From a virus, in IMG/VR virus record IMGVR_UViG_3300021438_000004, positions 1-42,228 of that record: DNA of 42,228 bases; one strand, given 5' to 3'. Numbering within the stretch: the stretch's first letter is position 1; each line of letters starts with the position of its first letter. The notes under the pieces are model-generated. The model was not told the DNA's origin. It made no database searches and saw only the letters and a list, made by a program, of their open reading frames with translations. Both the position numbers and the translations under genes were made by a program. This document shows, one piece after another, positions 1 to 37,034 of this stretch.

Positions 1-108
1 TGGGACTACACAGAGGAGCAAGTCAATGAGCAGATTAATGCAGATACACGAAGTGACGGAGATTTATCAGAAGTTGGAGACGAAGTTATCGGACAAGACT
101 TGGACTGA
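1..108 (+). CDS. 3' fragment of the sigma-factor-like gene (duplicate of 42102-42209 caused by the terminal overlap; not an independent gene)
   Basis: Frame 1 is open from base 1 to TGA at 106-108 and is identical to the end of ORF 41505-42209. Confidence 0.85.
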   Translation, partial: WDYTEEQVNEQINADTRSDGDLSEVGDEVIGQDLD

Positions 109-127
109 TACTCTTTCAGAAGACGAT
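1..127. repeat. Terminal direct repeat, copy 1 (identical to 42102-42228)
   Basis: Compared both ends base by base: tgggactacacagaggagc...ctctttcagaagacgat is present at both termini. Implies a 42101-bp unit (circular or permuted assembly, or terminal redundancy). Confidence 0.97.
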
Positions 128-388
128 ATTAAATTCTTGAACGACGTCAAGGATGGGTATCAGAATCTTGTATCACAAGTTTATATTTTCATTGGCTACT
201 TCCATCAGTACATTGACCTTATTCAGGCATCTGCTATCTTCTCACCTCAGTACGCGGAAGCAGTTGCAGAGAACGGCAATGTCAGTCCAACACAAACTTC
301 GCCAGCCCCTGCCAATCGCGCTGAAAAGCGGGCTGCGAAGAAGTCAGGGCTAATCCTACCAGAAGATAAGAAGTTGGTGACTCCATGA
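26..388 (+). CDS. Hypothetical protein, 120 aa
   Basis: ATG at 26 with GAGGAG 7 nt upstream. Overlaps the sigma gene 3' end by 83 nt. The stop overlaps the next ATG (ATGA). No recognisable motif. Confidence 0.55.
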   Translation: MSRLMQIHEVTEIYQKLETKLSDKTWTDTLSEDDIKFLNDVKDGYQNLVSQVYIFIGYFHQYIDLIQASAIFSPQYAEAVAENGNVSPTQTSPAPANRAEKRAAKKSGLILPEDKKLVTP

Positions 389-522
389 TTTGCACTAAGT
401 GTCGCGCAGCAGGTACAGCCAATTCAGTTGGTGATACTGCGATTGCAGTTATGCTACATGAGCAGTGTGAGTTCAGAGATTGTTGTTGTCAGCATAAGAC
501 AGGTAAGTTAATTAAAAAATAG
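385..522 (+). CDS. Small Cys-rich protein, 45 aa (MICTKCRAAG...CEFRDCCCQHKTGKLIKK)
   Basis: Below the ORF-track size cutoff; translated by hand. ATGA overlap with 26-388. CxxC plus CxxxCCC-x-H suggests metal binding. Ends just before the terminator hairpin. Confidence 0.45.
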   Translation: MICTKCRAAGTANSVGDTAIAVMLHEQCEFRDCCCQHKTGKLIKK

Positions 523-526
523 GCAT

Positions 527-563
527 AAAAATAGCCCCCCACCCAGTTAAGGATGAGGGGCTA
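527..563 (-). terminator. Intrinsic terminator closing the minus arm; also the convergence point for the plus-strand genes 26-522
   Basis: Minus-sense RNA has AGCCCCUCAUCC / GGGUGGGGGGCU, a 12-bp stem including G-U pairs, with loop UUAACU. It is followed by AUUUUUAUGCCUAUUUUUU. Confidence 0.7.
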
Positions 564-596
564 CGAGTCTACCGCCTTCCACGAAAGCAGACTCAG

Positions 597-613
597 TGGT
601 CGGAATCCGACCA
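597..613 (-). repeat. Early-arm palindrome GGTCGG-AAW-CCGACC, copy 1 of 8
   Basis: tGGTCGGAATCCGACCa. Starts 1 nt after the stop codon (615-617) of the last minus-arm gene, upstream of the 533-562 terminator hairpin. Confidence 0.9.
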
Positions 614-614
614 G

Positions 615-767
615 TTAGTAATCACGTACTATGTTCAGTACATGAAGAACACCTTGTGCCTCAAGGCGTGTAATAATGTAATCTATCACAGATTGTTCAT
701 CTAGTGGTGGATTACCTGCTACTTCATCTCCGACAGTAATGGAGAAAGTAAAACTATTCATCTCCAT
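615..767 (-). CDS. Hypothetical protein, about 50 aa (MEMNSFTFSITVGDEVAGNPP...)
   Basis: The track ORF 615-824 was trimmed to ATG 767 (or 761), which follows AGGA and overlaps the stop of 754-888. The longer N-terminus would overlap the upstream gene in another frame. Confidence 0.5.
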   Translation of the reverse strand: MEMNSFTFSITVGDEVAGNPPLDEQSVIDYIITRLEAQGVLHVLNIVRDY

Positions 768-888
768 ACATCCTGTCAGGTTCGTTGCTCTCACTGCAAA
801 TGCATTCATAAATGAAGCGTCCACAGTCCTCGCAATCGTCTGTCTTACCCAGTGCTATGTCATCATCTAGTGGTGGTTCATAACTCAT
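754..888 (-). CDS. Small Cys-rich protein, 44 aa (MSYEPPLDDDIALGKTDDCEDCGRFIYECICSE...)
   Basis: Hand-translated, below track cutoff. AAGGA lies 8 nt upstream of ATG 888. Overlaps the stop of 878-1030. Carries CxxC...CxC. Confidence 0.5.
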   Translation of the reverse strand: MSYEPPLDDDIALGKTDDCEDCGRFIYECICSESNEPDRMYGDE

Positions 889-1030
889 GGTTGTATTCCT
901 TCCCTACTTGATAATCATCACATACTGCTTGTACTGCTTTGTCTAAGTTGCGTCTTAGTTCTTGCTTGACTGGTTCATCTAGGTGAGCGATTAACTCATC
1001 TGTCAATGTTGCCTGCCATACTATTGCCAT
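878..1030 (-). CDS. Hypothetical protein, 50 aa (MAIVWQATLTDELIAHLDEPVKQ...)
   Basis: Track ORF 878-1078 trimmed to ATG 1030. The upstream 16 codons are the translated palindrome (VVGFRP). An AAAGG SD lies between the palindrome and the ATG. Confidence 0.6.
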   Translation of the reverse strand: MAIVWQATLTDELIAHLDEPVKQELRRNLDKAVQAVCDDYQVGKEYNHEL

Positions 1031-1044
1031 TGTCGTACCTTTCT

Positions 1045-1063
1045 GTGGTCGGAATCCGACCAC
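1045..1063 (-). repeat. Early-arm palindrome, copy 2 of 8
   Basis: gtGGTCGGAATCCGACCac. Overlaps the stop (1063-1065) of 1063-1182 and lies 14 nt upstream of ATG 1030. Confidence 0.9.
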
Positions 1064-1182
1064 TACAAAGCAATCCATAAGATTGCGCTAACTGCGGTTA
1101 ATGTGGCGACAGAAGTCCAAAGCATAAGGAGTAGTTGCTCGCTTACACTTTCTGTTAGGCGTTCATAGTCGTCATGATACAT
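1063..1182 (-). CDS. Small membrane protein, 39 aa (MYHDDYERLTESVSEQLLLMLWTSVATLTAVSAILWIAL)
   Basis: Hand-translated. AGGAG lies 5 nt upstream of ATG 1182. Overlaps the whiB 3' end by 11 nt. C-terminal hydrophobic helix. Confidence 0.5.
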   Translation of the reverse strand: MYHDDYERLTESVSEQLLLMLWTSVATLTAVSAILWIAL

Positions 1183-1519
1183 CTTCTCTCCTATCGGGTA
1201 GTCCACGATAAGCAGATGACTCATAAGTTGATAGCCAATCTATTGGTTTCATCTTGAGAGCAGTCTGCATAGCGTGTCTTTCTAGTCTGTCCATACCACC
1301 CCAAATCCCAGTGAGATTGAAGTATTGCAGTGCATAACTTCGACACTCTCGCTTGGCGGGGCAGTCTGAACAGATTGAGCGAGCAAGTTCAGCCTCAGGA
1401 GTATGACTCCAGTTACGACCTCTGCCTGCTAACTCTTGCGGATGCCACCAATCAGGGTCGTATCCTTCTTCAGAACACGAAGCATGATTGGTGAACATTG
1501 GTAAGTGATTATCAAACAT
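1172..1519 (-). CDS. whiB: WhiB-family Fe-S transcription factor, 115 aa
   Basis: Four Cys, including CSDCPAKREC (C-X2-C-X5-C), followed by the GIWGG turn. Start trimmed to ATG 1519 with GAGGAG upstream; the earlier track codons are the translated palindrome. Confidence 0.9.
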   Translation of the reverse strand: MFDNHLPMFTNHASCSEEGYDPDWWHPQELAGRGRNWSHTPEAELARSICSDCPAKRECRSYALQYFNLTGIWGGMDRLERHAMQTALKMKPIDWLSTYESSAYRGLPDRREDVS

Positions 1520-1664
1520 CTGTCTCCTCGCTGGTCGGAATCCGACCAAGTGCAAGTTTATCCCATGCACAGGATTGACAGTAGTTACGCTCTGCTAGGT
1601 CGTGTGAAGCCACAACTAAGTGGCAATCACACTTCCAGCATTTAGCGTTGATGTAGTTGGTCAT
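1512..1664 (-). CDS. Zinc-ribbon protein, 50 aa (MTNYINAKCWKCDCHL...NYCQSCAWDKLALGRIPTSEETDV)
   Basis: Hand-translated. ATGA overlap with 1661-1864. CxxC...CxxC. Reads through palindrome copy 3, and its stop overlaps the whiB start. Confidence 0.55.
   Translation of the reverse strand: MTNYINAKCWKCDCHLVVASHDLAERNYCQSCAWDKLALGRIPTSEETDV
1532..1548 (-). repeat. Early-arm palindrome, copy 3 of 8
   Basis: tGGTCGGAATCCGACCa. Lies inside the 3' end of 1512-1664 (codons GRIPT), 12 nt upstream of whiB ATG 1519. Confidence 0.9.
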
Positions 1665-1864
1665 GCGTGACCTTCCTCTAGCGGAAGTTGCCCCGCTAGT
1701 TGCGCATAGTGAGTGGCTCTCACCATGAGTCGTGCGTGTTCAGTTGTATTTCCCTGCTTGAGTGCTTCTTCTGCATCATGCAGGAATAGTTCAGCGCGTA
1801 CGCCATAGTAGTACGGTGTAGGCGGTACAGGAATGTGTCTAGGTTGATTACTCACCAGCCCCAC
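1661..1864 (-). CDS. Hypothetical protein, 64-67 aa
   Basis: GTG at 1864, or GTG at 1855 (a GTGA overlap with the GATase stop). G-rich SD-like stretch upstream. No motif recognised. Confidence 0.55.
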   Translation of the reverse strand: MGLVSNQPRHIPVPPTPYYYGVRAELFLHDAEEALKQGNTTEHARLMVRATHYAQLAGQLPLEEGHA

Positions 1865-2685
1865 CCCCCTGTAACATCAGAGTTCCACCAGTTGCCACCC
1901 TTGCTAGAGTTACTGCCTTGATAGCATAGGCAATCGGTCTTGTAGACACTGCACATCCAGCAACATCCGCAAGTAGGGCAGAAGTCTTCTGCACTAGGGT
2001 CTTTGGGTTCATCTAGTAGCACAGTCTCGCATACATGGCACTCTGCCCAAAACTCTTCATCCTCTTTGAGTCCGAAGTTAAGTGGTTGAGCACTACGCCA
2101 TGAGTTGCTATAAGTAGACAGGTAGCATGAGTCGTTAGACCACCACACACCTGATGAGTCTACCTTGCCTTTGTTCTCGTGAATGAGATAGCACTGGTGC
2201 TTAGCACTAGGGTCTACTGTAAGGATGCAGACCTTAGAGCCTGATGTGAAATCTTCCATGAGGTTGAATACTTGGTCGTTATCTAGTGCAGATACACCAC
2301 CGATAGCAGGTAGCAAATCCTCTGCAAAGATACGAGTGTCACTGCGCAAGTCACCTTGCGGTTCGACAATAGGCAGGATGCCGTTGTGTGCTAGATAGGT
2401 GCGCTCATCTCCACCTACCTTGAATGGGTGACAGTTGTCCACTGTCATTGAGCCATGAGTGGCTAGTCGTGCGTGCCACATAGCATAGCCTTCAGGATAC
2501 TTAGCACGCATCTCTAAGAAGCGATTGACTGAAGTATCAGGGTTCATAGTGCGCTCACTATGGATACGGTTCTCACTTGGGATAACGATAGCAAAACCAA
2601 ATCCGTGTGGATTGTTGAGCGCAGAGTTTTCTAACTTCTCACGAGACGGAATTACATTGGGAGGAATTACACATAACATACACAT
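1852..2685 (-). CDS. Class II (Ntn) glutamine amidotransferase-like hydrolase with a Cys/Trp-rich C-terminal extension, 277 aa
   Basis: Starts Met-Cys. Carries NPHGFGFA, WHARLATHG, NCHPF and LAHNG blocks. The C-terminal ~70 aa has CHVC, CPTCGCCWMC, CLC and ends GGNWWNSDVTGGWGW. Confidence 0.85.
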   Translation of the reverse strand: MCMLCVIPPNVIPSREKLENSALNNPHGFGFAIVIPSENRIHSERTMNPDTSVNRFLEMRAKYPEGYAMWHARLATHGSMTVDNCHPFKVGGDERTYLAHNGILPIVEPQGDLRSDTRIFAEDLLPAIGGVSALDNDQVFNLMEDFTSGSKVCILTVDPSAKHQCYLIHENKGKVDSSGVWWSNDSCYLSTYSNSWRSAQPLNFGLKEDEEFWAECHVCETVLLDEPKDPSAEDFCPTCGCCWMCSVYKTDCLCYQGSNSSKGGNWWNSDVTGGWGW

Positions 2686-2701
2686 TGGCTTACTCTTTTC
2701 T

Positions 2702-2720
2702 GTGGTCGGAAACCGACCAC
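2702..2720 (-). repeat. Early-arm palindrome, copy 4 of 8
   Basis: gtGGTCGGAAACCGACCac. Abuts the amidoligase stop (2721-2723) and lies 16 nt upstream of GATase ATG 2685. Confidence 0.9.
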
Positions 2721-4175
2721 CTAGTTTTCATAAGGGGTTGAGTCAGAAGCGAACGATTCGCTCATGATTAGTGCGAGATTAGGATAAGTCTCTAGGTTCT
2801 CTGATACATACGCGGTAAAGCGTAGCCACGACAGAGCCTGATTCTTGGACGTAACCTTAAGGTCACGTGTGTACTCAACGGAAGCAGCAACGAACTCAAG
2901 TGCAGATAGCACTCTCTCCTTGCGTAACGAACCCTTGAATACGCGTACTTCTAGCGTGGCATCATTCTCGGTGTTAATAGCCGAGTATCTGCCATTAGAT
3001 TGGTTGCCAAACTTAACCTTCTCGATAAGTTTGCCTTTGTCACCAAAGGTTGCATAGTGGTTGCCACTACGCCCAGCGATACGCTCAACCTGTCGTTGGT
3101 TATCATAGATAAGTTTCATGAATCGTAACTCATGAGCCTGTCGCTTGAGGATAAGTTGTTCTCGGTCTACCCTGCCCCATGGACTCTCACCAGTACCAAA
3201 AGCGGTACGGGATACGTGAACATGAAGTCCACAGGTATCTGTATTCCATGAACGATAACCTTCACGCTTCAACTTAGGAATGAACTCCCAGTTGAAGTTA
3301 GTCTGATACTCCTGCAAGGTATGAGGATGAGTTACTACCTCAAAGCCGTCAGAGAGTGAGCCGTCATCCTTCATGTAGGCGTGACCACCTAACTCATTCT
3401 GAACTAACTCTGCACCTTCATAGCGAGAGTTATTGCGAGCCTCTACCTCTAACTCAAAGCCGAGATAGTATTGACCTCTGCCAAAGAAGTAGGGGCTAGG
3501 TCGGTACGAGTAACTATGGATTGCACCTTCGTCCTCGTCCTCTTGACAGTCGTGCCCATCTCCGTCCCAGCACTCTGAGCCACAGTCGTTACACTCATAG
3601 TAATAATCCTCATAGCAACTGTCACAGTAGAGCGTATCTCTGTACCACGTGCCGTTATCTCTGTGAAAGATGTCATCACATTGGTTGCAGGAATTGAAGT
3701 TATGGCGTCCTCCATTGTCGTTATAGTGTTCGTTGGCACAGTATTCACAACGTAGACTCCCTTCTATCTGAGTTAAATCGGTGAAACCGACAAGGTTGAG
3801 GCTACTGCGCCAATCGGTGTAGCGAGTAGTTGCATAGACTGTATCGCAATCTACACACTGATTAGAGTTACGATAGAGAGTTGAACAAGCGCGGTGAACG
3901 GTTAATTCTGTCTCTCTATCTGATAGATAAGCAGTAACGAACTGCCAATCTTGCTGGTCGGAATCCGACCGAATGAACTCAGGACGACCACAAGCCTTGC
4001 AGTTTGGAACTTCATCCATGACAGGGATGCGGTCAGGTATCTCCTCATGACCGTAGCGTACTTGGCAAGCACGACAACGCTCAGACTGATGAGGGTCTAA
4101 CTCAGATGATACGAATAGGTGGTTAGGCATACTGCAACGCTCACAGATACCGATACCTGTATAGCCGTATGACAT
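2721..4175 (-). CDS. Zinc-ribbon array fused to a glutamine-synthetase-like amidoligase (Amidoligase_2 type), 484 aa
   Basis: ATG 4175 with GGAG upstream. The N-terminal ~250 aa carry 8 CxxC pairs. The C-terminal half has GFELEVE, DDGSLSDGFEVVTHP and CGLHVHVSR. The track ORF's extra 82 N-terminal codons cross another gene and a palindrome. Confidence 0.8.
   Translation of the reverse strand: MSYGYTGIGICERCSMPNHLFVSSELDPHQSERCRACQVRYGHEEIPDRIPVMDEVPNCKACGRPEFIRSDSDQQDWQFVTAYLSDRETELTVHRACSTLYRNSNQCVDCDTVYATTRYTDWRSSLNLVGFTDLTQIEGSLRCEYCANEHYNDNGGRHNFNSCNQCDDIFHRDNGTWYRDTLYCDSCYEDYYYECNDCGSECWDGDGHDCQEDEDEGAIHSYSYRPSPYFFGRGQYYLGFELEVEARNNSRYEGAELVQNELGGHAYMKDDGSLSDGFEVVTHPHTLQEYQTNFNWEFIPKLKREGYRSWNTDTCGLHVHVSRTAFGTGESPWGRVDREQLILKRQAHELRFMKLIYDNQRQVERIAGRSGNHYATFGDKGKLIEKVKFGNQSNGRYSAINTENDATLEVRVFKGSLRKERVLSALEFVAASVEYTRDLKVTSKNQALSWLRFTAYVSENLETYPNLALIMSESFASDSTPYEN
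3956..3970 (-). repeat. Early-arm palindrome, copy 5 of 8 (inside coding sequence)
   Basis: GGTCGGAATCCGACC within the amidoligase N-terminal region, encoding RSDSDQ. Confidence 0.9.
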
Positions 4176-4177
4176 GA

Positions 4178-4339
4178 TTACTCCTGCTCGATGAAGTGCT
4201 TGAGTTCTTGATACTGATAGCGCCAGTATCTGCGTGATTCGTCTAACTGACGATTGTGAAGTGCGGTTGTGATTACAAGTGTTACTGATACGCCTAACGC
4301 AATCATGACTGCGATTAGGTCGGTTACTTCTAGGTACAT
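4178..4339 (-). CDS. Small membrane protein, 53 aa (MYLEVTDLIAVMIALGVSVTLVITTAL...)
   Basis: Track ORF 4178-4402 trimmed to ATG 4339 with AAAGG upstream. One TM helix. Its stop is 2 nt before the amidoligase ATG. Confidence 0.6.
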   Translation of the reverse strand: MYLEVTDLIAVMIALGVSVTLVITTALHNRQLDESRRYWRYQYQELKHFIEQE

Positions 4340-4357
4340 TTGGAACCTTTCGGGTAG

Positions 4358-4374
4358 TGGTCGGAAACCGACCA
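4358..4374 (-). repeat. Early-arm palindrome, copy 6 of 8
   Basis: tGGTCGGAAACCGACCa. Lies 18 nt upstream of ATG 4339, in the predicted 5' leader of the operon. Confidence 0.9.
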
Positions 4375-4409
4375 GTTGAAGTAAGGGCATGGTTGCCCCC
4401 ACTAAGATA

Positions 4410-4438
4410 AGAGTACGGCAATCGGTAACCTATGTCAA
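4410..4438 (-). promoter_or_regulatory. Candidate sigma-70-type promoter for the 4339-to-615 operon
   Basis: On the minus strand, TTGACA (4438-4433), a 17-nt spacer, then TACTCT (4415-4410). Sits downstream of the tandem terminators and upstream of palindrome copy 6. Confidence 0.35.
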
Positions 4439-4496
4439 ACGCGTATGACTTGAGCCCGCGTCCTCAGAGTACGGCTATAGATACGCCCCGCCCCCT

Positions 4497-4537
4497 CCAA
4501 CACAAACTTCTACCGACACAAACCTTTCCGACACAAA
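4497..4537 (-). repeat. Three direct repeats CCRACACAAA (minus sense TTTGTGTYGG)
   Basis: Copies at 4497-4506, 4513-4522 and 4528-4537, spaced 15-16 nt. They lie between the terminators and the candidate promoter. Confidence 0.8.
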
Positions 4538-4543
4538 ATCCGC

Positions 4544-4599
4544 GCCCGCGTTGCGCGGGCAAGCGAAAGCCCCGCCCCCCGATTAAGGGAGACGGGGCT
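4544..4599 (-). terminator. Tandem hairpin terminators after gene 4618-5271
   Basis: Hairpin 1 pairs 4568-4580 with 4587-4599 (13 bp including G-U) and is followed by UUUCGCUU. Hairpin 2 is GCCCGCG-ttg-CGCGGGC (4544-4560), followed by GCGGAUUUUGUGU. Confidence 0.6.
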
Positions 4600-4600
4600 C

Positions 4601-4615
4601 GGTCGGAATCCGACC
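4601..4615 (-). repeat. Early-arm palindrome, copy 7 of 8
   Basis: GGTCGGAATCCGACC. Starts 2 nt after the stop (4618-4620) of 4618-5271 and abuts terminator hairpin 1. Confidence 0.9.
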
Positions 4616-4617
4616 GC

Positions 4618-5271
4618 TTAGGCGCTAGCCTTTACAGGGTGTGAAACCGACAAGGCGCGAGAGTTTGCAATCTGCGCCTTAATCAAGCGCCCTAGTTTCT
4701 CCGCATTGTCGAAGTTATGGATGACCGCCTTGTCACCTTCCAATTCTTGAAAGAGCCCAAGCGCGAGAGTGACTACCGCGTCAAAGTCCACCGCGACCGC
4801 CTTAACCTTCTCTGAAATCTCCTTCTCACTCGCCACCTTCTTGCCCGCCCCGCGTGTCTCTGCTTCTGCCTTGTCCTCTGCCAAGCCTTCTGCAATCTTA
4901 GCGAACTCCGCGAATGAGCGAGAAATCTCAACGTTCGCCTTGAAATCTGCCTTACTCATAACGCGGAGAGCGTCCTGCGTGGTGGTGATGAGTTTCTTAA
5001 CGTTCACCTTCTCGCCACCTTTAAGGCTTCCCAAATTGTACGCGGCAACTACATAAGAGCGCCAAGAGGCTTTGGCGAATGTCGAACCTTCGCAAGCCTC
5101 GACAGTGGCAGCCCATCCACGAGTCGAAAGTGTGCCCGCAATTAGCAATTCTGCGGACTTATCGAACCAAGCGCGGAACGCGTCCTCGTTCACAGTGGCG
5201 CCCAATTCTTGAACGAGAACCTTGTTAGCCAAATCTTCTGCCTTTACTTGCTTTGGTGTTGCTGTTGTCAT
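4618..5271 (-). CDS. Hypothetical helical protein, about 217 aa, in a GC-rich, terminator-insulated cassette
   Basis: Long ORF with visibly higher GC than its neighbours. Start set at ATG 5271 (MTTATPKQ..., GAAAG upstream). Alternative starts are 5292 and 5328. The track start 5415 reads through palindrome copy 8. Confidence 0.65.
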   Translation of the reverse strand: MTTATPKQVKAEDLANKVLVQELGATVNEDAFRAWFDKSAELLIAGTLSTRGWAATVEACEGSTFAKASWRSYVVAAYNLGSLKGGEKVNVKKLITTTQDALRVMSKADFKANVEISRSFAEFAKIAEGLAEDKAEAETRGAGKKVASEKEISEKVKAVAVDFDAVVTLALGLFQELEGDKAVIHNFDNAEKLGRLIKAQIANSRALSVSHPVKASA

Positions 5272-5368
5272 TGTCGTACTTTCTATCATTCGAGACGTTC
5301 GCTCGACCTGATAAGAGAATGGTCTCATGGATAGGCACCAAAAGCAAATAGGCGCGACCCCTTCCAAA

Positions 5369-5385
5369 TGGTCGGAAACCGACCA
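5369..5385 (-). repeat. Early-arm palindrome, copy 8 of 8
   Basis: tGGTCGGAAACCGACCa, 97 nt upstream of ATG 5271. Confidence 0.9.
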
Positions 5386-5422
5386 CCCAAGCCAAGCCCC
5401 AGAGATACCCGCCAAAGGTCAC

Positions 5423-5442
5423 CAGAAGCCCGCAGAAGCCCG
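5423..5442. repeat. Perfect tandem 10-mer cagaagcccg x2
   Basis: Read directly: cagaagcccgcagaagcccg in the leader region of the GC-rich cassette. Confidence 0.85.
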
Positions 5443-5471
5443 AAACCCCCCAAGCGCGGGCAGATAGTCAC

Positions 5472-5506
5472 CCAACACAAACCGCGAGCCTTATTCCCAA
5501 CACAAA
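5472..5506 (-). repeat. Two further CCAACACAAA direct repeats
   Basis: Copies at 5472-5481 and 5497-5506, same orientation as the 4497-4537 set. Copy 5497-5506 follows a GC hairpin in minus sense. Confidence 0.8.
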
Positions 5507-5519
5507 AAATCGCGCGCTC

Positions 5520-5535
5520 GCCCGCTAAAGCGGGC
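5520..5535 (-). other. GC hairpin GCCCGC-taaa-GCGGGC
   Basis: 6-bp stem. In minus sense it is followed after about 10 nt by AUUUUUUGUGUUGG, the same arrangement as hairpin 2 at 4544-4560. Confidence 0.5.
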
Positions 5536-5666
5536 TCGCGGTCTGCCGACACTTACTTAATCGCGTAAGCGAATACTAAAACTAATCATGTCGTAAACGA
5601 CAAAAGACAAAAGAAAAGAAAGGTGCTCGCTGTCGCTCGCCCTCATCAAACGCCAAAAAACTTCAA

Positions 5667-5681
5667 GGTCGCACGGCGACC
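5667..5681 (-). other. Variant palindrome GGTCGC-acg-GCGACC
   Basis: Same 6+3+6 architecture as the early-arm palindrome. In minus sense it lies just downstream of a perfect TATAAT (5696-5691) and is followed by UUGAAGUUUUUUGG. Confidence 0.5.
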
Positions 5682-6016
5682 CCAGTGCTTATTATAGCCC
5701 CTGGCTATACATATACACTATCGCCTAAAATTATTTTTCCAGTATTTAGGCTCTAGTGTCCCGTATTGTCCGTATTTGTACATATATTTTTAGTGACGTT
5801 AGTCACATTTAGCACTTCAGTGCGTTCGCTTTCGTCTTTTGAACGGGTTAGTATATATAGACGAACGACTACTGCTGAGTGAGTCTATGTGACTGTGAGT
5901 GGTTGGCTAAGGCAGACGAACGAAGTGAGGCTGGCTTTATGCCAGCCACGAACCGAGGGGTTAGCGAGGCGCTGAAAGCGCCGAGCGATAAAGGGGATTT
6001 ATAACGGAGGTTTTAT

Positions 6017-7888
6017 ATGGCTGCCAAGGGTGGTAAAGAACATCACAATGTGGTGGCATTAAAAGAGGCTAAGGCCAAAGTAATAGAATTCGTCAAGCAA
6101 GGTTTAGACTTGCAGGACGCAATCGCCAGGGCTGACAGAAAGCCCGATGTCATGAAGGACTGGCGAAAAGACGAGCAGTTCATGAGAGCCCTAGAAAAGG
6201 CCCGTGAAGAGGGTGAACGTACCCTAAGCATCGTCACAGGGGACGCTAAGTTTAAGATAGGCTTTGAGCAATTCTCAAAAGAGTTTCTAGACTCGCCCAT
6301 CTTTGACCATCACCGTTCTTGGATTGATATCCTAGAAGGACGTGAGCCAAGTTACATTCATGAGAGCATGGTTTATGAGCCTGCCTCGCCTAAGCGGTTG
6401 CTTTTGAATGTGCCGCCTGAGCATGCTAAGTCTACAGTCATTACGGTCAACTACTGCGTCTATCGCATAGCCATGGACCCTAACATTAAAATTACAATTG
6501 TCTCCAAGACTCAGGAGCGTGCCAAGGAGTATCTCTACTCCATCAAGCAACGTCTGAGCCATGAACGCTGGGCCAAGATGCAAGCCGTCTATGGTTCTAC
6601 TGGTGGATGGAAAGAGGATGCAGATACCTGGAAGGCTGATAGGATTTATCTCAGCCGCGATTCCACCGAAAAGGACCCGACTGTTCAGGCTCTGGGTGTG
6701 GGTGGTCAAATCACTGGTGCTCGTTCTAACCTTATTATTCTGGATGACGTCGTTACTACCTCAAATGCCCATGAGTGGGAGAAGCAACTCCTCTGGCTCC
6801 AGCGAGATGTAGTAACTCGTCTTGGTGATGCTGGTAAACTACTTATCGTAGGAACTCGTATCGCGGCTAACGACCTCTATCGAGAGATTCGTAATCCTGA
6901 CCACTGGACGGGTGGCAAGACACCGTTTACATACATGTCAATGCCAGCAGTATTGGAGTATAACGATGACCCAGAAAAATGGACTACCCTTTGGCCAAAG
7001 TCTAATATCCCATGGGAAGGTTCAGAAGACGACATCCTACCCGATGAAAACGGTCTTTACCCTAAATGGGACGGGCCAGCACTGTTTCGCCGACGTTCAG
7101 AAGTCTCTCCTTCTGCTTGGGCACTTGTTTATCAGCAGCAGGACGTCCAGGAAGATTCTATTTTCCCGCCTGCATGTGTCCAAGGTTCAGTCAATAGGAT
7201 GCGCAAACGCGGACCTCTAAAGCCTGGTACGCCTGGTCATCCCGACCAACAAGGTCAGTGGTACACCATCATGGGATTAGACCCTGCGATGGCGGGTAAT
7301 ACCGCTGCTGTTATTATGACGGTTGACCGTCAGACTAGAAAACGCTACATCTTGGATGTAGAGAATATGCAAGAACCAACTCCTCAGAAGATTCAGAAGT
7401 TGATTGAGGATTGGGTAACTAAGTATCGCCCACAAGAACTACGTATTGAGACTAACGCTCATCAGAAGGCTTATGCACTAGATGAGAATCTACGTAACTA
7501 TCTTGCCTCTACTGGTGTGAGGTTCTCAAGCCAGTTTACTGGTAAGAATAAATGGGATACTGGTTTTGGTGTGGCTGCTATGTCAGGTCTGTTTGGGACT
7601 ATGCGCAACAATGTACACCAAGATGATAACTTAATTGAACTTCCATCACAGGATGGTTCAGAAGGTATCAAGGCTTTAATCCAACAATTAATTACTTGGA
7701 AGCCAGATACTAAAGGTAAGACAGACTGCGTAATGGCTTTATGGTTCTGTGAACTACGAGCACGCGAAGTAATCGGAACCACAAGAATGAGTCAAAGCCA
7801 TATCCCTAATAAGTGGGCTACGGCACGACAGCAAAGTACTCGTTATGTTGTAAATCTTAACGATTACGAATTTGCTCAATACGAATAG
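6017..7888 (+). CDS. terL: Terminase large subunit, 623 aa
   Basis: GGAGG 6 nt upstream of the ATG. Walker A-like NVPPEHAKST and Walker B-like LIILDDV. First gene of the long plus arm, followed by a portal-sized ORF. Confidence 0.88.
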   Translation: MAAKGGKEHHNVVALKEAKAKVIEFVKQGLDLQDAIARADRKPDVMKDWRKDEQFMRALEKAREEGERTLSIVTGDAKFKIGFEQFSKEFLDSPIFDHHRSWIDILEGREPSYIHESMVYEPASPKRLLLNVPPEHAKSTVITVNYCVYRIAMDPNIKITIVSKTQERAKEYLYSIKQRLSHERWAKMQAVYGSTGGWKEDADTWKADRIYLSRDSTEKDPTVQALGVGGQITGARSNLIILDDVVTTSNAHEWEKQLLWLQRDVVTRLGDAGKLLIVGTRIAANDLYREIRNPDHWTGGKTPFTYMSMPAVLEYNDDPEKWTTLWPKSNIPWEGSEDDILPDENGLYPKWDGPALFRRRSEVSPSAWALVYQQQDVQEDSIFPPACVQGSVNRMRKRGPLKPGTPGHPDQQGQWYTIMGLDPAMAGNTAAVIMTVDRQTRKRYILDVENMQEPTPQKIQKLIEDWVTKYRPQELRIETNAHQKAYALDENLRNYLASTGVRFSSQFTGKNKWDTGFGVAAMSGLFGTMRNNVHQDDNLIELPSQDGSEGIKALIQQLITWKPDTKGKTDCVMALWFCELRAREVIGTTRMSQSHIPNKWATARQQSTRYVVNLNDYEFAQYE

Positions 7889-7895
7889 GATAATA

Positions 7896-9629
7896 ATGGC
7901 AGACATTAAACTCATCGCACGCCGCGTAGAGGCTATGAAGCATCGCGCCTATGAGCGCGATACCCAAATGGCTAACGTGCTTGCTGTGCGTCAAGGAAAG
8001 ATGGTCGAGATTTTTCCTGACCTATTTCCAGAGGGCATGCCTCATGCTATGGTCGCAAACTTTGTTGATGTTGCAGCACGCGACTTAGCAGAAGTATTAG
8101 CACCACTGCCATCTATCAACTGCTCTACTACTAACGTAACATCAGACCGTGCTCGTGCATTTGCTGACAAGCGCAGCATGATTGCTAACAATTATGTTTA
8201 TCATTCACGTCTGCAGACTCAGATGTATCCAGGTTCTGACCAGTACTTCTCCTATGGTTTCTTGCCAGTACACGTTGAGCCAGACTGGGACAATGACCTT
8301 CCTCGTGTACGCGTAGAAGACCCAACTGGTGTCTACTATGAGCGTGACCGTTTTGGTCGTCTAGTTGCATACGCTAAGCGTTACAACAAGACAATCGGTG
8401 AACTTGTTAATGAGTTCCCTGAGTATGAGCGTGCAATCCTTGGTCAGTTTGGTTTTGACCAGAACATGAATCAAGATATTGAAGTTATCCGCTACATGGA
8501 TAAAGATTCAATCATCTTGTATGTTCCTTCACGCAAAGATTTAGTTTTAAGTTTTGCTAAAAACCCTATGGGTAAAATGACTGTCATTATTGCAGAGCGT
8601 CCATCTATTGATGGAAAGCCTCGTGGACAGTTTGATGATGTAATCTTTGTACAACTTGCTCGTGCTCGTTTTGCTAACCTTGCCATGGAAGCGGCTGAAA
8701 AGTCAATCCAGGCTCCACTTGTAGTACCTGATGATGTTCTAGATATGCCTATGGGCCCAGATGCAATCATTCGTACTACAAATCCAAATGGTGTTGGGCG
8801 TGTTCGTTTGGACATTCCCGCGGCTACTTTCCAGGAGCAATCAGCCCTCCAATCTGAATTGCGTTTAGGTGCTCGATATCCTGAGGGTAGAACTGGAAAC
8901 ATTGACGCTAGTGTTATCACTGGTCAAGGTGTCCAGGCATTACTTGGTGCTTTCGATTCTCAGATTAAGGCTGGTCAAACAGTCCTTGCTGAGGTATTGG
9001 AAGATGTCATCAAGTTATGTTTTGAAATGGATGAACTCCTTTTCAATAAGGAAAAGAGTGTCAGAGGCGTAGCGCAAGGAACACCGTACGAGTTAAAGTA
9101 CATGCCAAGCAAGGACATTAAGGGCGATACTTCTGTAGAAGTTCGATATGGCTTGATGGCTGGATTAGACCCTTCACGCGCTCTGATTTTCTCTCTACAA
9201 GCATTAGGTGCTGATTTAGTATCTAAGGACTTCATTCGTCGTGAGTTGCCATGGAGCGTAAACGTTTCTATGGAAGAGCAGCGTATTGAAATTGAAAAGA
9301 TGCGCGAGAACCTTACTGCATCAATTACTGCGAGTGCACAAGCAATTCCAGCAATGGTAGCGCAAGGTCAAGACCCATCTAAGTTAATTCAGAATATTGC
9401 AGACGTTATTGAACGTCGCCGTAAGGGTGAGACTATAGAGTCTGCTGCGTTGGCAGTGTTTAAGGTGGAAACACCTGCACAGCCTCCACAGACAGAGATG
9501 GCTCCGCCAGGCACACAAGGCCCAGTTGAGCAAGCGCCCCCGTCCCCAGCGGCTCCTGGACAACCTTCTGGCGGGGCCCCTCAACAAGCCCCAGCAGATT
9601 TAACAACAATGTTAGCAGGACTAGGTTAG
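7896..9629 (+). CDS. Portal protein (by position and size), 577 aa
   Basis: ATG 7896 with AGGA upstream; the track start 7872 overlaps terL. Lies immediately after terL. Pro/Gln-rich C-terminus. No motif-level proof. Confidence 0.7.
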   Translation: MADIKLIARRVEAMKHRAYERDTQMANVLAVRQGKMVEIFPDLFPEGMPHAMVANFVDVAARDLAEVLAPLPSINCSTTNVTSDRARAFADKRSMIANNYVYHSRLQTQMYPGSDQYFSYGFLPVHVEPDWDNDLPRVRVEDPTGVYYERDRFGRLVAYAKRYNKTIGELVNEFPEYERAILGQFGFDQNMNQDIEVIRYMDKDSIILYVPSRKDLVLSFAKNPMGKMTVIIAERPSIDGKPRGQFDDVIFVQLARARFANLAMEAAEKSIQAPLVVPDDVLDMPMGPDAIIRTTNPNGVGRVRLDIPAATFQEQSALQSELRLGARYPEGRTGNIDASVITGQGVQALLGAFDSQIKAGQTVLAEVLEDVIKLCFEMDELLFNKEKSVRGVAQGTPYELKYMPSKDIKGDTSVEVRYGLMAGLDPSRALIFSLQALGADLVSKDFIRRELPWSVNVSMEEQRIEIEKMRENLTASITASAQAIPAMVAQGQDPSKLIQNIADVIERRRKGETIESAALAVFKVETPAQPPQTEMAPPGTQGPVEQAPPSPAAPGQPSGGAPQQAPADLTTMLAGLG

Positions 9630-9638
9630 GAGATTGAA

Positions 9639-9884
9639 ATGGCTACTCCACGTAAGAAGCCTTCCCCTAAGAAAGTTCAAGTTGTTGACACTAACGAATA
9701 TAATCGTTTAGAGATTTACTGCATCTGGCTCAATGAATATTACACAACATTGAAGCGTGCAGGTTTTAATGATGATATGGCATTTTGGTTAATCACTAAT
9801 AAAGATTCATATCCAGACTGGGTAAATTTCAAGTTACCTACAAATAATCAAATTGCAGACTACATGGATGAGGATGAAGACTAA
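9639..9884 (+). CDS. Hypothetical protein, 81 aa
   Basis: GGAG SD. Tightly packed in the virion arm. TAATG overlap with the next gene. Confidence 0.7.
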   Translation: MATPRKKPSPKKVQVVDTNEYNRLEIYCIWLNEYYTTLKRAGFNDDMAFWLITNKDSYPDWVNFKLPTNNQIADYMDEDED

Positions 9885-10312
9885 TGGCTATTAATGAAAA
9901 AGTCTCAGGTATGGGAGCAAACGCTTCTCGTACCGATAAAAACCTCAGTGAGCGTGTAGCAAAGGTTCAGCGTGAAGCAAAGATGCAGAATGCATCTGGT
10001 GGCGAATATGGTTCACGTGCAGATTTAACTTCTATTGCTGGTGGAGCACCTACAAATGTTCCAACACCTAGTGTTTCAACTAATCCAATTGCTGCAACTG
10101 TTCAGCCTACTAATGCTTTTACTCCTGGTGCAGGAGATGTTCCTCTTTCACATGGTGCTCCTGGTGGACCAGGTGCAGGAACCGAAGCACTTATGACTCC
10201 TGTTGATGCAGTTGACCAAGGTTCTATTCTTGCTCGTGCACTTCTTGCTGCAAATCCTACATCTCGTCAATTAGCAATGATGGTTGAAGCATATAACGAA
10301 TTGGATATGTAG
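9884..10312 (+). CDS. Hypothetical Ala/Gly/Pro-rich protein, 142 aa
   Basis: TAATG start overlap. Its stop overlaps the GTG of the giant ORF. Confidence 0.7.
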   Translation: MAINEKVSGMGANASRTDKNLSERVAKVQREAKMQNASGGEYGSRADLTSIAGGAPTNVPTPSVSTNPIAATVQPTNAFTPGAGDVPLSHGAPGGPGAGTEALMTPVDAVDQGSILARALLAANPTSRQLAMMVEAYNELDM

Positions 10313-21048: not shown

Positions 21049-21359
21049 AACATAGAGAGAACCACCCTACAGATGTTGAGGGTTGCTTTGGATGCAAGGT
21101 TTTAGGACTCCAGATGAGTCCAGGAGATGCTTCATCTCAGAAAGCAATGAGCAACAAAAGGTGGGACGGAGAGTTGGACGCCTATCGACAAGCACGTGCC
21201 GATGGGATTCAACCAGCAGGAACAAGCATGGAAAAGATACAAGAAGCAAGACGAGCATCAGAGGCTATGGGCAAGGCTTACGATTCGAATACCATGCCCA
21301 ACACAAACTTAATCCAAAACAACACAGTATCTAAACTAAAGGAAGTAGGGCTGGTCTAA
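21045..21359 (+). CDS. Hypothetical protein, 104 aa
   Basis: ATGA start overlap and TAATG stop overlap with its neighbours. Confidence 0.7.
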   Translation: MKHRENHPTDVEGCFGCKVLGLQMSPGDASSQKAMSNKRWDGELDAYRQARADGIQPAGTSMEKIQEARRASEAMGKAYDSNTMPNTNLIQNNTVSKLKEVGLV

Positions 21360-34813: not shown

Positions 34814-34837
34814 GGACAGATTCACAAAGGAGTACCT

Positions 34838-35029: not shown

Positions 35030-35049
35030 GGCTACCAAGCCTTCAAATC

Positions 35050-35097
35050 AGCCCCTCATTTTACTAGCAATAGTAGAGTGGGGGGCTTTTTTGTTTT
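35050..35097 (+). terminator. Strong intrinsic terminator ending the virion/lysis arm
   Basis: AGCCCCUCA...(inner UACUA-GCAA-UAGUA)...GUGGGGGGCU, followed by UUUUUUGUUUU. Confidence 0.8.
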
Positions 35098-37031: not shown

Positions 37032-37034
37032 AAG

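Follow-up and report, generated by a model that had tools for sequence, protein, structure and literature searches.

Palindromes in the early arm of an uncultured actinobacterial phage and the protein g1 as their candidate binder

Palindromes of the early arm

The window, the whole 42,228-nt stretch of DNA analysed here, comes from an uncultured actinobacterial phage, a podovirus related to Streptomyces Beephvirinae. Its 5-kb early arm is read from the minus strand and encodes WhiB, an amidoligase-like gene, a class II GATase and small genes. The virion module contains a 1930-aa ORF of unknown function. We found no integrase, partition gene or prophage copy for this phage. The features of the arm are as follows:

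5370..5384, minus strand: palindrome copy 1, GGTCGGTTTCCGACC in the mRNA sense; 22 nt upstream of the P1 -35, centre at ~-65
5319..5347, minus strand: predicted promoter P1 of g1, -35 TTGCTT, 17-nt spacer, TGn-extended -10 GACCAT; predicted from conservation
5283..5315, minus strand: RNA hairpin in the P1 leader, with the loop GCGAACG; used as the positive control for covariation within these genomes
4618..5271, minus strand: g1, first gene of the arm, 217 aa, all-helical, with a basic N-terminal domain; candidate palindrome binder
4601..4615, minus strand: palindrome copy 2, 2 nt past the g1 stop codon and 2 nt ahead of the first of two terminators
4540..4600, minus strand: two predicted intrinsic terminators closing the g1 transcription unit (program match at 4561-4543 and reading of the sequence)
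4410..4438, minus strand: predicted promoter P2 of the rest of the arm, TTGACA, 17-nt spacer, TACTCT; conserved in type-1 and type-2 relatives
4359..4373, minus strand: palindrome copy 3, in the P2 leader at ~+30 to +45, upstream of ATG 4339
3956..3970, minus strand: palindrome copy 4, inside the amidoligase-like ORF 4175-2721 (484 aa), encoding x-S-D-S-D-x
2704..2718, minus strand: palindrome copy 5, past the amidoligase stop codon and ahead of ATG 2685, the GATase start
1533..1547, minus strand: palindrome copy 6, overlapping the 3' end of a 50-aa Zn-ribbon ORF, upstream of the WhiB ATG 1519
1047..1061, minus strand: palindrome copy 7, upstream of ATG 1030; a hypervariable cassette of small genes follows
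598..612, minus strand: palindrome copy 8, past the last stop codon of the arm, ahead of a predicted terminator at 564-531

We found that the palindromes are not a chance set, are confined to the arm and have strand polarity. Scanning both strands for exact matches to GGTCGGNNNCCGACC gave 8 copies of GGTCGG-AAW-CCGACC, all within 598-5384, and none in the rest of the window. The mean number of matches in 100 dinucleotide-preserving shuffles was 0.00. The sequence-only reading had reported eight palindromes, all in the arm, with no full copy elsewhere and none expected by chance, and each of these points held. Allowing 2 mismatches, we obtained two weak extras only. One, at 19869-19883, is a half-site-like match. 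The other, at 5667-5681, was rejected as a palindrome copy; it is a different terminator hairpin, GGTCGCACGGCGACC.

The plus-strand centre is AAT in five copies and AAA in three, as that reading had it (8/8), and the polarity holds in relatives. The extended flanks that it had seen at 1045 and 2702 are real, GT...ACAGAAA being common to copies 1047 and 2704. The copies that it had placed at 597 and 4601 do lie after the last stop codon and before a terminator. Four window copies are followed at 2-6 nt by a Shine-Dalgarno sequence. Their gaps to the start codon, read from the sequence, are 16 nt (ATG 1030), 13 nt (ATG 1519), 18 nt (ATG 2685) and 19 nt (ATG 4339); the four starts had been assigned correctly, and the range, given as 12-18 nt, becomes 13-19 nt. 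Copy 5370 is 98 nt upstream of ATG 5271, about as stated (97 nt), but a conserved promoter intervenes. For half of the window copies, the placement is unsuited to affecting a start codon.

Palindrome types and g1

We compared the arm with 19 related loci covering window positions 1-12560 and 34448-42228. The relatives are also arm-restricted: 70/70 copies are in the arm or in arm-specific insertions. The window palindrome is type 1, and 12/12 of its arm bases are invariant across 67 non-redundant copies (~15 related contigs, 70-85% nucleotide identity); variation is limited to the central 1-3 bases. There was no G.U or compensatory change in the palindrome arms within a type among the relatives' copies. 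The P1 leader hairpin had compensatory changes at 6/11 pairs (10 relatives).

Sister phages have other perfect 15-bp dyads at homologous positions: GTCTGAT-W-ATCAGAC, GTTCGGATTCCGAAC, GTACGGATTCCGTAC, GTACGAT-W-ATCGTAC and GTTAGAA-Y-TTCTAAC. There are six types, all 15 bp and all 7-1-7 dyads; type-3 arms are GTTCGG...CCGAAC. The site homologous to copy 3 is occupied in sister phages by a type 2, 3, 5 or 6 palindrome. The intragenic copy 4 is kept in relatives in the same frame with zero synonymous change amid diverging flanks, and de novo palindromes have been gained inside conserved coding sequence. Taken from the alignments, these comparisons show that the palindromes are under base-specific selection. 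The sequence-only reading had proposed such an alignment for telling compensatory stem changes from base-specific conservation; we found the latter and 0 of the former.

The palindrome type tracks a single gene, g1, one of the ~40 proteins compared, all encoded outside the structural genes (10-34 kb). The identity of g1 is 70-90% within a type and 27-56% between types, while its neighbours stay at 85-97%. Relative to the window protein, identity is 27-32% for type 2, 38-56% for type 3, 40% for type 4, 27-35% for type 5 and 33-35% for type 6. In a type-2 phage, at least 30 other proteins, from the arm, replication module, sigma, terminase and portal, match the window as closely as in type-1 phages (e.g., 88-97%). 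The genome comparison thus shows that site sequence and g1 allele switch together.

Individual positions of the half-site pair with segments of g1 when alleles are compared. The inner triplet GGA pairs with (L/V)(I/V)TxTQ(D/A) at residues 94-100, and the inner triplet GAT with LNxTIQA or FxxxxQG. The outer GTAC pairs with K(A/S/T)SxxQY(F/L), in type 4 and type 5 alike. The change of G to T at position 2, from type 1 to type 3, pairs with SWRSY becoming TWGAY, with the loss of one Arg. Relatives with another version of g1 have another palindrome in the same places, so the palindromes look like g1 sites.

g1 is a ~210-aa helical protein of a previously undescribed family. Searches of Pfam, PHROG and PDB gave no relatives, and neither an HTH nor any other known DNA-binding fold was detected. 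Its N-terminal domain is basic (pI ~9-10) and is modelled by structure prediction as a 7-helix bundle (pLDDT 90.6).

The binder might instead be a host factor or another phage protein, with g1 diverging in step, e.g., by interacting with that factor. The lack of a recognisable DNA-binding fold in g1 would fit, as would the structural module falling outside the between-type comparison, and the mycobacteriophage Corndog has 35 copies with type-3 arms and no detectable g1 homologue. We nevertheless think another binder improbable. Among the ~40 proteins g1 alone tracks the motif type, specific g1 segments correlate with specific half-site positions, and g1 itself is flanked or preceded by sites in every type. 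A host factor cannot explain six specificities among phages otherwise 85-97% identical, and the Corndog motif is absent from host genomes (PMC4351075).

The repeats might also be recombination substrates or cassette boundaries for small early genes, with no dedicated binder, as in T4-type PeSL cassettes. A hypervariable cassette is the gene after copy 1047, and the extra gene of L007/L042 brings its own copy. L008 and L020 retain a type-1 copy at the copy 7 position amid type-2 copies, paired with a cassette otherwise seen in type-1 phages, and deletions between Corndog repeats are reported (PMC4351075). However, the variable cassettes do not have copies on both sides, and this explanation does not say why the dyads are perfectly symmetric and come in six discrete types, why they co-vary with g1 or how sites arose de novo within coding sequence that is conserved. 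We regard it as very improbable; recombination between palindromes is more likely a by-product.

DNA or RNA as the ligand

We infer that g1 binds the palindromes, that the ligand is dsDNA rather than RNA, and that the outcome of binding is repression. Put together, the palindromes are probably dsDNA operators through which a g1 dimer autoregulates or shuts off the early arm, much as stoperators do; we hold this with a little more confidence than doubt. Most likely, a symmetric g1 dimer would bind dsDNA, with one central A/T pair separating two 7-bp half-sites, G-x-x-Y-G-R-W, each read by one subunit. At first, g1 would be transcribed from P1 and the remaining arm from P2 by the host RNA polymerase. 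Accumulating g1 would then fill the eight sites, which are found upstream of its own promoter, past its stop codon, within the P2 leader, and inside or between the genes that follow. Occupancy would damp or shut off the arm, likely by a transcriptional roadblock and/or looping between sites, like stoperators. No copy overlaps a core promoter, as far as the promoters are predicted, which gives no indication of repression by the classical steric block of initiation.

The main rival has the same protein, g1 (or another factor), binding transcribed hairpins (6-bp stem, 3-nt loop) sequence-specifically. Such RNA operators could act on translation of the next gene, on mRNA stability or processing, or on termination or antitermination, as in lambda N-boxB or coat protein-operator systems. 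This rival is sustained by the unexplained strand polarity of the centre. In the mRNA sense the centre is WTT in 63/67 non-redundant type-1 copies, ATT in 19/19 type-3 copies, and TAA (n=32) rather than TTA (n=9) in types 2 and 5. In type 1, only the promoter-proximal half-site tolerates a change of A7 to T. The strong polarity weakens the dsDNA reading, since the two orientations of the central base are indistinguishable to a symmetric dimer on dsDNA.

Other observations also suit RNA operators. All copies share one transcription direction and most abut a Shine-Dalgarno sequence, including the four in the window that finish 2-6 nt ahead of it; this suits an RNA operator no less than a DNA one. 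Seven of the eight window copies are predicted to fold in context (P ~0.99), in line with the earlier view that they form hairpins as RNA. A copy is in the leader of g1 itself in type-2 phages and L228, as nutL is upstream of lambda N, and another is directly ahead of the g1 terminators in type-1 and some type-3 phages. The N-boxB hairpin co-varies with its binder as well.

Against RNA operators is the placement of copies relative to transcription. In types 1, 3, 4, 5 and 6 (5/6 types), palindrome copies are 17-29 nt upstream of the predicted P1 -35. The -35 itself is TTGACA in most relatives and TTGCTT in the window (alignment). Copy 1 keeps this placement in 12 type-1 relatives, with a spacing of 21-24 nt, and L232 has two copies upstream of the P1 -35, 34 bp apart. 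Farther upstream are three same-sense terminator-like hairpins, and no promoter-like site was found between these and the P1 copy. In L228/L229 and L236, a copy lies past the T-run of the g1 terminator. Copies upstream of the -35 or past T-runs are predicted to be untranscribed.

The palindromes themselves also fit RNA poorly. The stem is invariant and the loop variable, the opposite of most protein-hairpin recognition. Each of the 6-7 stem positions is apparently read, which is hard in an A-form helix. There are zero G.U variants, and predicted hairpin stability ranges across types from -8.2 to -3.0 kcal/mol, a 2.7-fold spread. Copies inside genes or at the operon end lack a start codon on which to act, the intragenic window copy (3956) is not predicted to fold (P = 0.03), and Corndog copies occur in both orientations. 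We therefore consider RNA operators possible but unlikely.

A hairpin that needs no protein is the least probable explanation, and we give it little credence. It could be an RNase site, a 5'/3' stabiliser or a translational insulator in RNA, or an N4-type ssDNA hairpin promoter. A stable fold is predicted, and for a hairpin promoter the template-strand loop is purine-rich in types 1 and 3, with the 1930-aa ORF at hand. That ORF, however, has no similarity to N4 vRNAP, and the arm is driven by the conserved, predicted sigma-70-type promoters P1 and P2. The palindromes show neither covariation nor wobble within a type, whereas the P1 leader hairpin covaries in the same genomes. They have no Rfam match, and in some cases are inside genes or immediately before terminators. 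The palindrome stem is just 6-8 bp, far too short for RNase III.

The sequence-only reading had preferred a structural transcribed GC hairpin, active in processing, stabilisation or translational coupling. This fits poorly with invariant arms without compensatory changes, a sequence that co-varies with one protein, stability that varies by type, copies misplaced for start codons and copies upstream of a -35. The evidence agrees better with the alternative that it named, a DNA site dependent on orientation. Of its suggested analogies, neither RNase III sites nor start-associated sequences are supported as a family for the palindromes.

Comparison with known systems

Lambda boxB is a 15-nt hairpin with a 5-bp stem and a specific pentaloop; each genome has two such sites, both always transcribed. 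Its binder, N, is short, disordered and rich in arginine. The likenesses are the 15-nt hairpin size, a binder that is the first gene of the early operon, hairpin-binder co-variation, and a site in the binder's own leader in some lineages. Here, in contrast, there are 8-10 sites with an invariant stem and a variable loop, and some copies are predicted to be untranscribed.

IncP plasmids carry roughly twelve identical 13-bp palindromes, the OB sites, whose distance from promoters varies (upstream, downstream, far). Their one binder is KorB, a dimeric ParB-family protein that acts in global and distant repression, partition and spreading. Scattered identical palindromes with one dimeric binder (for g1, proposed) resemble this system. 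However, g1 has no similarity to ParB, and partition would serve no obvious purpose in a podovirus that shows no sign of being temperate.

The SAS/ESAS repeats of Cluster K mycobacteriophages are likewise just upstream of some start codons, in one orientation, and of unknown function (PMC3203893). The 13-mer SAS, GGGATAGGAGCCC, is asymmetric and includes the ribosome-binding site; ESAS is a 17-bp inverted repeat, imperfect and with a spacer that varies from 4 to 13 bp. The window palindrome is a perfect dyad that excludes the Shine-Dalgarno sequence and, unlike SAS/ESAS, has copies past last genes, within genes and ahead of a promoter as well.

Cluster A stoperators, bound by the L5 gp71 family repressor, are many identical short sites in short intergenic spaces and near promoters; their orientation correlates with transcription, motif and binder co-vary between related phages, and they are proposed to block elongating RNA polymerase (PMC9283540, PMC6550527). 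The palindromes resemble them in these respects, with g1 as the candidate binder and a roadblock as the proposed action. Stoperators are, however, asymmetric 13-mers bound by a monomer with HTH and 'stoperator' domains, and in temperate phages they occupy the two arms of the genome; the palindromes are 15-bp dyads confined to the arm that encodes g1. No similarity was detected between g1 and the Cluster A immunity repressor.

The nearest precedent comes from Cluster O mycobacteriophages, in which Corndog and its relatives carry a 17-bp dyad repeat, 5'-TGTTCGGNNNCCGAACA, whose function was left open and for which a dimeric binding protein was suggested (PMC4351075). Corndog is a Mycobacterium siphovirus rather than a podovirus, and its 35 copies are found throughout the 70-kb genome and in both directions of transcription, compared with 8 in one arm here. 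Its centre bias is weak and opposite (AAA 21, TTT 9, mRNA sense), whereas that of the window is strongly polar. Cluster O has no alternative motif types or co-varying protein known. No g1 homologue was detectable in Corndog despite its type-3 arms, a point against g1 as the binder, and a different binder is possible in principle. The arms of Corndog are identical to those of the type-3 sister phages and differ from the window type 1 by one symmetric base pair. The two repeats also share invariant 6-7-bp arms, an A/T-rich 3-bp centre and a T...A outer flank. In both, copies are in short intergenic spaces, near gene 5' ends and inside genes, and are concentrated in a leftward early or non-structural operon, with sites gained and lost among relatives and recombination between copies.

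Palindromes of the leftward arm

We found that the palindrome was restricted to the leftward arm, the 5-kb minus-strand gene block. An exact scan of the window for GGTCGGNNNCCGACC gave eight copies, with starts at 598, 1047, 1533, 2704, 3956, 4359, 4601 and 5370, all inside 598-5384. The 15-mer did not occur at all in 100 shuffles. Relaxing the scan to two mismatches brought in just two more places: an unrelated terminator hairpin at 5667 and, at 19869, a match resembling a half-site. With its flanks the window motif reads (T)GGTCGG-WWT-CCGACC(A), and its centre on the plus strand is AAT in five copies and AAA in three. Thus, three claims of the sequence-only reading held up: that full copies are confined to the arm, that they are not due to chance, and that the plus-strand central triplet is AAT or AAA in 8/8 copies. 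Its association of the copies with start codons stood for four of them, but the other four have no start codon within 20 nt. Six of the eight are intergenic or in leaders, and the Shine-Dalgarno sequence is 2-6 nt downstream of the motif, outside the dyad.

Features of the arm
5271-4618, minus: g1, the first gene of the arm, 217 aa, no family
4339-4178, minus: membrane protein, 53 aa
4175-2721, minus: amidoligase-like protein (weak Pfam Amidoligase_2; PHROG 16683 and 22302)
2685-1852, minus: class II glutamine amidotransferase (GATase)
between GATase and WhiB, minus: small ORFs including a Zn ribbon
1519-1172, minus: WhiB
past WhiB, minus: four further small ORFs
564-531, minus: arm-end terminator

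The remaining 37 kb are transcribed rightward. Encoded there are terminase, capsid, SU10-type adaptor, tail fibres, CHAP lysin, Cas4-like nuclease, DnaB-like helicase, primase, metallophosphatase and a protein with sigma-70 region 4. An ORF of 1930 aa after the portal gene (10312-16104, plus) had no match in Pfam, PHROG or PDB sequences; its product is presumably a virion protein, either internal or ejected. By terminase, the closest cultured phages are Streptomyces podoviruses of the Beephvirinae (45% amino-acid identity), which have the same layout, with a right-end leftward arm convergent with the sigma gene. The amidoligase-like and GATase genes (1852-4175, minus) are kept as a pair beside WhiB in all relatives and look like an early host-modifying module. 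An FmdB-type Zn-ribbon gene (Pfam Zn_ribbon_8; 35220-35468, minus) is isolated between the lysis and replication modules, with no palindrome nearby.

The restriction to the arm extended to relatives. A motif scan of IMG/VR gave 107 loci, 19 of them related to the arm, with nucleotide identities of 70-85%. These 19 loci also span 12 kb of structural and 8 kb of replication genes, and 70/70 of their palindromes mapped to the arm. Every homologous copy kept 12/12 bases of the palindrome arms while the flanks diverged freely, and no copy with one or two mismatches was found among the arm relatives. Where the palindrome is intragenic, its frame is conserved (x-S-D-S-D-x), with zero synonymous changes in relatives.

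Hairpins nearby served as a control. The g1 leader RNA hairpin (5283-5315, minus; loop GCGAACG) had compensatory changes in 6/11 pairs across ten genomes, and the terminator hairpin at 5664-5684 had loop changes and one G.U substitution among relatives. The divergence is therefore ample to expose a constraint on structure only. Judged by these alignments, the palindrome does not behave as an element of that kind: its arms are invariant and without a compensatory pattern, in contrast to the leader hairpin. The structural RNA hairpin favoured by the sequence-only reading lost ground accordingly.

Further upstream, three minus-sense terminator-like hairpins (5684-5664, 5602-5589 and 5532-5515; region 5515-5900) are preceded by a stretch rich in AT (5690-5900), which adjoins the terminase gene on its upstream side. 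Region 5515-5900 may hold the genome termini or a packaging site, by analogy with Streptomyces phage Manuel, in which terminase is gene 1, about 760 nt from the left end. Manuel (L231; NC_048685.1, 33000-45177), the closest cultured relative, shares the right-end arm architecture, and no palindrome was found in that interval. What its arm has instead is a repeat of the extended Shine-Dalgarno kind, ACAAGGGAGAGAGA, with 5-6 copies immediately before start codons; near the genome end, ACAAATCGGACA is present three times.

Palindrome types and co-variation with g1

Two loci, L008 and L020, align with the arm yet carry only one exact copy each of the window palindrome (type 1). Their other homologous positions hold a different perfect 15-bp dyad (type 2), and a scan for it added L133 and L172. 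Further types came from contigs encoding more distant relatives of g1.

Palindrome types and the loci that carry them
type 1: GGTCGG-WWT-CCGACC; window and about 15 relatives
type 2: GTCTGAT-W-ATCAGAC; L008, L020, L133, L172
type 3: GTTCGGATTCCGAAC; L226-L230
type 4: GTACGGATTCCGTAC; L232
type 5: GTACGAT-W-ATCGTAC; L233, L235, L236
type 6: GTTAGAA-Y-TTCTAAC; L237

All six are 15-bp 7-1-7 dyads of the form G-x-x-Y-G-R-W / W/Y / W-Y-C-R-x-x-C. Site positions shared across types are beside P1 (the predicted g1 promoter), after g1, in the leader of P2 (the predicted promoter for the rest of the arm), before GATase, WhiB and a small gene, and after the last stop codon. Type-2 phages have a palindrome copy in place of the g1 leader hairpin. 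Sites within the amidoligase gene originated at different points in different types (for example, type 2 H-T-L-S-D-Y-Q-T corresponds to H-T-L-Q-E-Y-Q-T in the window), which indicates repeated de novo selection of sites in this region. L008 and L020 look like mosaics or intermediates: each combines six or seven type-2 sites with one type-1 site adjoining an imported cassette. In the window, the small gene directly after palindrome 1047 (878-1030, minus) is such a cassette. It is hypervariable, and close relatives have five or more unrelated versions of it; L008 and L020 have their type-1 copy beside this gene.

We found that g1 was the only protein that tracked palindrome type, of about 40 window proteins that could be compared across types.

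Identity to the window protein, by palindrome type
g1: type 1, 70-90%; type 2, 27-32%; type 3, 38-56%; type 4, 40%; type 5, 27-35%; type 6, 33-35%
GATase: type 1, 75-94%; type 2, 89-90%
DnaB-like helicase: type 1, 95-98%; type 2, 97%
metallophosphatase: type 1, 95-98%; type 2, 97%
sigma: type 1, 84-93%; type 2, 87-90%
terminase: type 1, 90-94%; type 2, 90-95%

Because neighbouring proteins are equally similar in types 1 and 2, L133 (type 2) is as near to the window as the type-1 phages are, except in g1 and the palindromes. Conversely, g1 proteins of just 34-38% mutual identity share one type (type 5; also type 3), so the site is tied to particular residues and not to overall distance. Two segments correlate with the half-site. 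Residues 64-75 correlate with the outer tetramer: K(A/S/T)SxxQY with GTAC (types 4 and 5 alike), (R/K)P(T/S)WG(A/S)YV with GTT(C/A), and SWRSY with GGTC. Residues 94-100 correlate with the inner triplet: TxTQ(D/A) with GGA, NxTIQA or xxxxxQG with GAT, and NTAISA with GAA. Type 4 looks like a natural hybrid, its outer bases and first segment being type-5-like and its inner bases and second segment like those of types 1 and 3. We regard this residue-to-base correspondence as tentative, a correlation and not proof.

The g1 family has about 110 close members in about 45 clusters at 50% identity, all roughly 200-245 aa and all metagenomic. The conserved N-terminal domain is basic (pI about 9-10), the linker after it is charged and variable, and the C-terminal domain is helical. 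The N-terminal 128 residues were modelled as seven helices (pLDDT 90.6, pTM 0.82); the full-length model was mediocre (pLDDT 68). g1 had no relative in Pfam, PHROG or PDB sequences and no tblastn match in 50,697 GenBank phage records, in which a near-identity search with the arm also gave no match. There was no relative in 185,579 bacterial and archaeal genomes, and thus no evidence of a prophage. In Foldseek searches of the PDB neither the full-length nor the N-terminal-domain model had a match (nothing with E below 1 for the domain). With no recognised fold, the structure of g1 neither supports nor excludes DNA binding.

Other repeats were also seen. GTTTGTGTYGG (7 copies versus 1.5 expected) has two clusters, one upstream of P1 and the other in the interval from the g1 terminators to P2. 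Relatives conserve it whatever their palindrome type, so it shows no co-variation with g1, and another factor may bind there. Just upstream of the first palindrome (about 5390-5460) are short direct repeats, GGGCTTCT-like in the window and GAGCGTGGGGCT or GAGCCTGAGC at the homologous place in relatives. The 15-mer of the arm also turns up, as GGTCGGATTCCGACC, at the core of 33-bp and 22-bp tandem arrays; the viral contigs that carry these arrays are unrelated to the window.

Positions of other repeats
4497-4507, 4513-4523, 4528-4538, 5472-5482, 5497-5507, 287-297, 21298-21308, minus: GTTTGTGTYGG
L013 2071-2217, L051 4078-4224, L052 3762-3798 (unrelated IMG/VR contigs): GGTCGGATTCCGACC arrays

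Nature of the site and a model for arm control

Recognition of the site as duplex DNA appears roughly twice as likely as recognition of a transcribed hairpin. The arms are invariant and the centre variable, and seven positions per half-site are apparently read. From one type to another, the stability predicted for the RNA varies between -8.2 and -3.0 kcal/mol. The location of several copies also argues against RNA. In types 1, 3 (L226, L230), 4, 5 and 6 the P1-associated copy is 17-29 nt upstream of a conserved TTGACA-type -35, and L232 has two copies upstream of the predicted P1 -35, 34 bp apart. Three same-sense terminator-like hairpins are further upstream, and no promoter-like site was found between them and the copy. 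In L228/L229 a copy is 3 nt past the T-run of the predicted g1 terminator. For half of the copies in the window there is no start codon that they could regulate, and the intragenic copy is not predicted to fold into a hairpin. A scan of 1-6600 against Rfam gave a spurious miRNA match only.

However, recognition of a hairpin would fit the polarity of the centre, which a symmetric dimer on DNA cannot explain. In the mRNA sense the centre is WTT in 63/67 type-1 copies and ATT in 19/19 type-3 copies, and in types 2 and 5 TAA outnumbers TTA (32 versus 9). In type 1, A7-to-T is tolerated solely in the promoter-proximal half-site. A Shine-Dalgarno sequence adjoins many copies, and the leader of g1 itself holds a copy in type 2 and L228. 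On duplex DNA, the polarity could come from an asymmetric complex or from contact with oncoming RNA polymerase.

P1 and P2 are predicted to be host-type promoters, and g1 a monocistronic unit ended by two predicted terminators (4540-4600). In types 1 and 3 the g1-linked sites are near -65 and behind the stop codon; in type 2 the leader holds such a site. The remaining sites begin at +30 to +45 of P2 and then occur once per 0.2-1.3 kb, and no site overlaps a predicted core promoter. Regular spacing was ruled out by a 2.7-kb gap in L226. This pattern suggests that g1 regulates itself and represses the early arm by roadblock and/or looping. Such control would set in as g1 levels rise, and the phage sigma factor would presumably take over afterwards. 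Alternatively, the sites might serve activation or antitermination in place of repression.

The palindrome set is real and functional. A bolder reading, which we think improbable, is that g1 and the palindromes form a heteroimmunity-like self/non-self control system in apparently lytic, uncultured actinobacterial podoviruses. g1 would then be a DNA-binding protein of a new fold, the polar near-symmetric sites would be oriented roadblocks over the phage's own early arm, and genomes nearly identical in other respects would have switched specificity six times or more. Competition among co-infecting relatives would be the likely driver: the g1 of a resident phage would silence an intruder of the same type at its early arm.

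If binding by g1 is confirmed, its fold would be a new one for sequence-specific binding of nucleic acids, with specificities re-programmed in nature, and stoperator-like arm-wide control would extend beyond temperate mycobacteriophages. The polarity of an otherwise symmetric site bears on directional stopping of RNA polymerase by DNA-bound proteins.

Comparison with known systems

No paper on the exact 15-mers was found in a literature search, and we compared the palindromes with known kinds of element. N4-type virion RNA polymerase recognises hairpin promoters in the template strand. Promoters of this kind were rejected: the 1930-aa ORF is dissimilar in sequence to the N4 vRNAP chains in the PDB, and predicted sigma-70-type promoters are conserved. 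In the lambda N/boxB system, the transcript forms a hairpin whose loop is specific, located after the early promoter and before terminators, and the protein that binds it has an arginine-rich motif. The copy in the P2 leader and the copy before the g1 terminators resemble this arrangement. Other copies are upstream of P1 or past a terminator (as predicted), the loop is the variable part, and g1 is a folded helical protein whose N-terminus is not arginine-rich. T7-type RNase III sites are intergenic dsRNA stems of about 20 bp with an internal loop. The sequence-only reading had offered them as an analogy, from which the palindrome departs with its stem of 6-8 bp and lack of an Rfam match in 1-6600. 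It had also pointed to the start-associated sequences of Cluster K, asymmetric 13-mers that contain the ribosome-binding site immediately before start codons (PMC3203893). That likeness fails, since the window motif is a dyad with the Shine-Dalgarno sequence outside it and half of its copies lack a nearby start. Cluster K sequences, RNase III sites and N4 promoters each fail in at least one defining feature, and N-boxB agrees with some of the copies and not with others.

Cluster A stoperators were a closer match in part. These are asymmetric 13-bp sites of temperate phages, bound by a monomer, the L5/TipsytheTRex immunity repressor with its HTH and stoperator domains; promoter and short intergenic sites are oriented with transcription, and binding blocks elongation in an orientation-dependent manner, such that reversal abolishes repression (PMC9283540). 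Motif and binder co-vary between phages (PMC9283540, PMC6550527). The earlier analogy stood insofar as the window sites are dispersed, mostly intergenic or in leaders (6/8), polar with transcription and co-varying with a candidate binder. It broke down on the site, a 15-bp 7-1-7 dyad in all six types, and on the protein: the stoperator binder is unrelated, and g1 has no match in Pfam, PHROG or the PDB.

The closest precedent is the 17-bp repeat of Cluster O, TGTTCGGNNNCCGAACA, with invariant arms, an A/T-rich centre and both intergenic and intragenic copies, for which a dimeric binder was suggested (PMC4351075). This repeat (TGTTCGG-NNN-CCGAACA) has more than 30 copies genome-wide, with no meaningful orientation (PMC4351075). 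In Corndog, 34-35 copies are known; our re-scan gave 35, genome-wide, with a weak and opposite centre bias. The architecture of inverted arms around an A/T-rich 3-bp centre matches the window motif. The Cluster O arms are those of type 3, one symmetric step from type 1; L226, L228 and L230 carry exactly GTTCGGATTCCGAAC, and the window sequence differs. In contrast to the Cluster O spread, the window has 8 copies within 598-5384, and the type-1 centre is polar. By terminase, the window is also closest, among cultured phages, to Beephvirinae and not to Corndogvirus, and the g1 HMM found nothing in Corndog.

A Cluster O homologue of g1 was sought as well. In a Foldseek search of the BFVD viral-protein models g1 had weak matches only, one being Ryadel gp132 (Corndog gp122 family; E = 0.26, from the low-confidence full-length model). 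This protein of ~240 aa is encoded at the extreme right genome end (Corndog L238/L239, Ryadel L240), and its gene diverges from the leftward operon in which most of the Cluster O repeats are found. Profile-profile comparisons of g1 with the gp122 family and with Corndog gp82, gp83 and gp121 were negative, and we therefore claim no Cluster O homologue.

For years, multi-copy palindromes of actinobacteriophages, such as those of Cluster O, have been listed with neither a binder nor a function assigned. The present data offer a candidate for the binder, six pairs of matching site and protein, and a residue-to-base correspondence that is tentative. In the bolder, improbable reading, the same self/non-self logic with another binder would explain the Cluster O repeats, unexplained since 2015. 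The comparisons of sites and proteins suggest at least six naturally switched specificities, with a candidate binder whose fold matches nothing in the PDB, and the palindromes are best described as a probable new variant of the dispersed phage operator, with its candidate binder newly identified.
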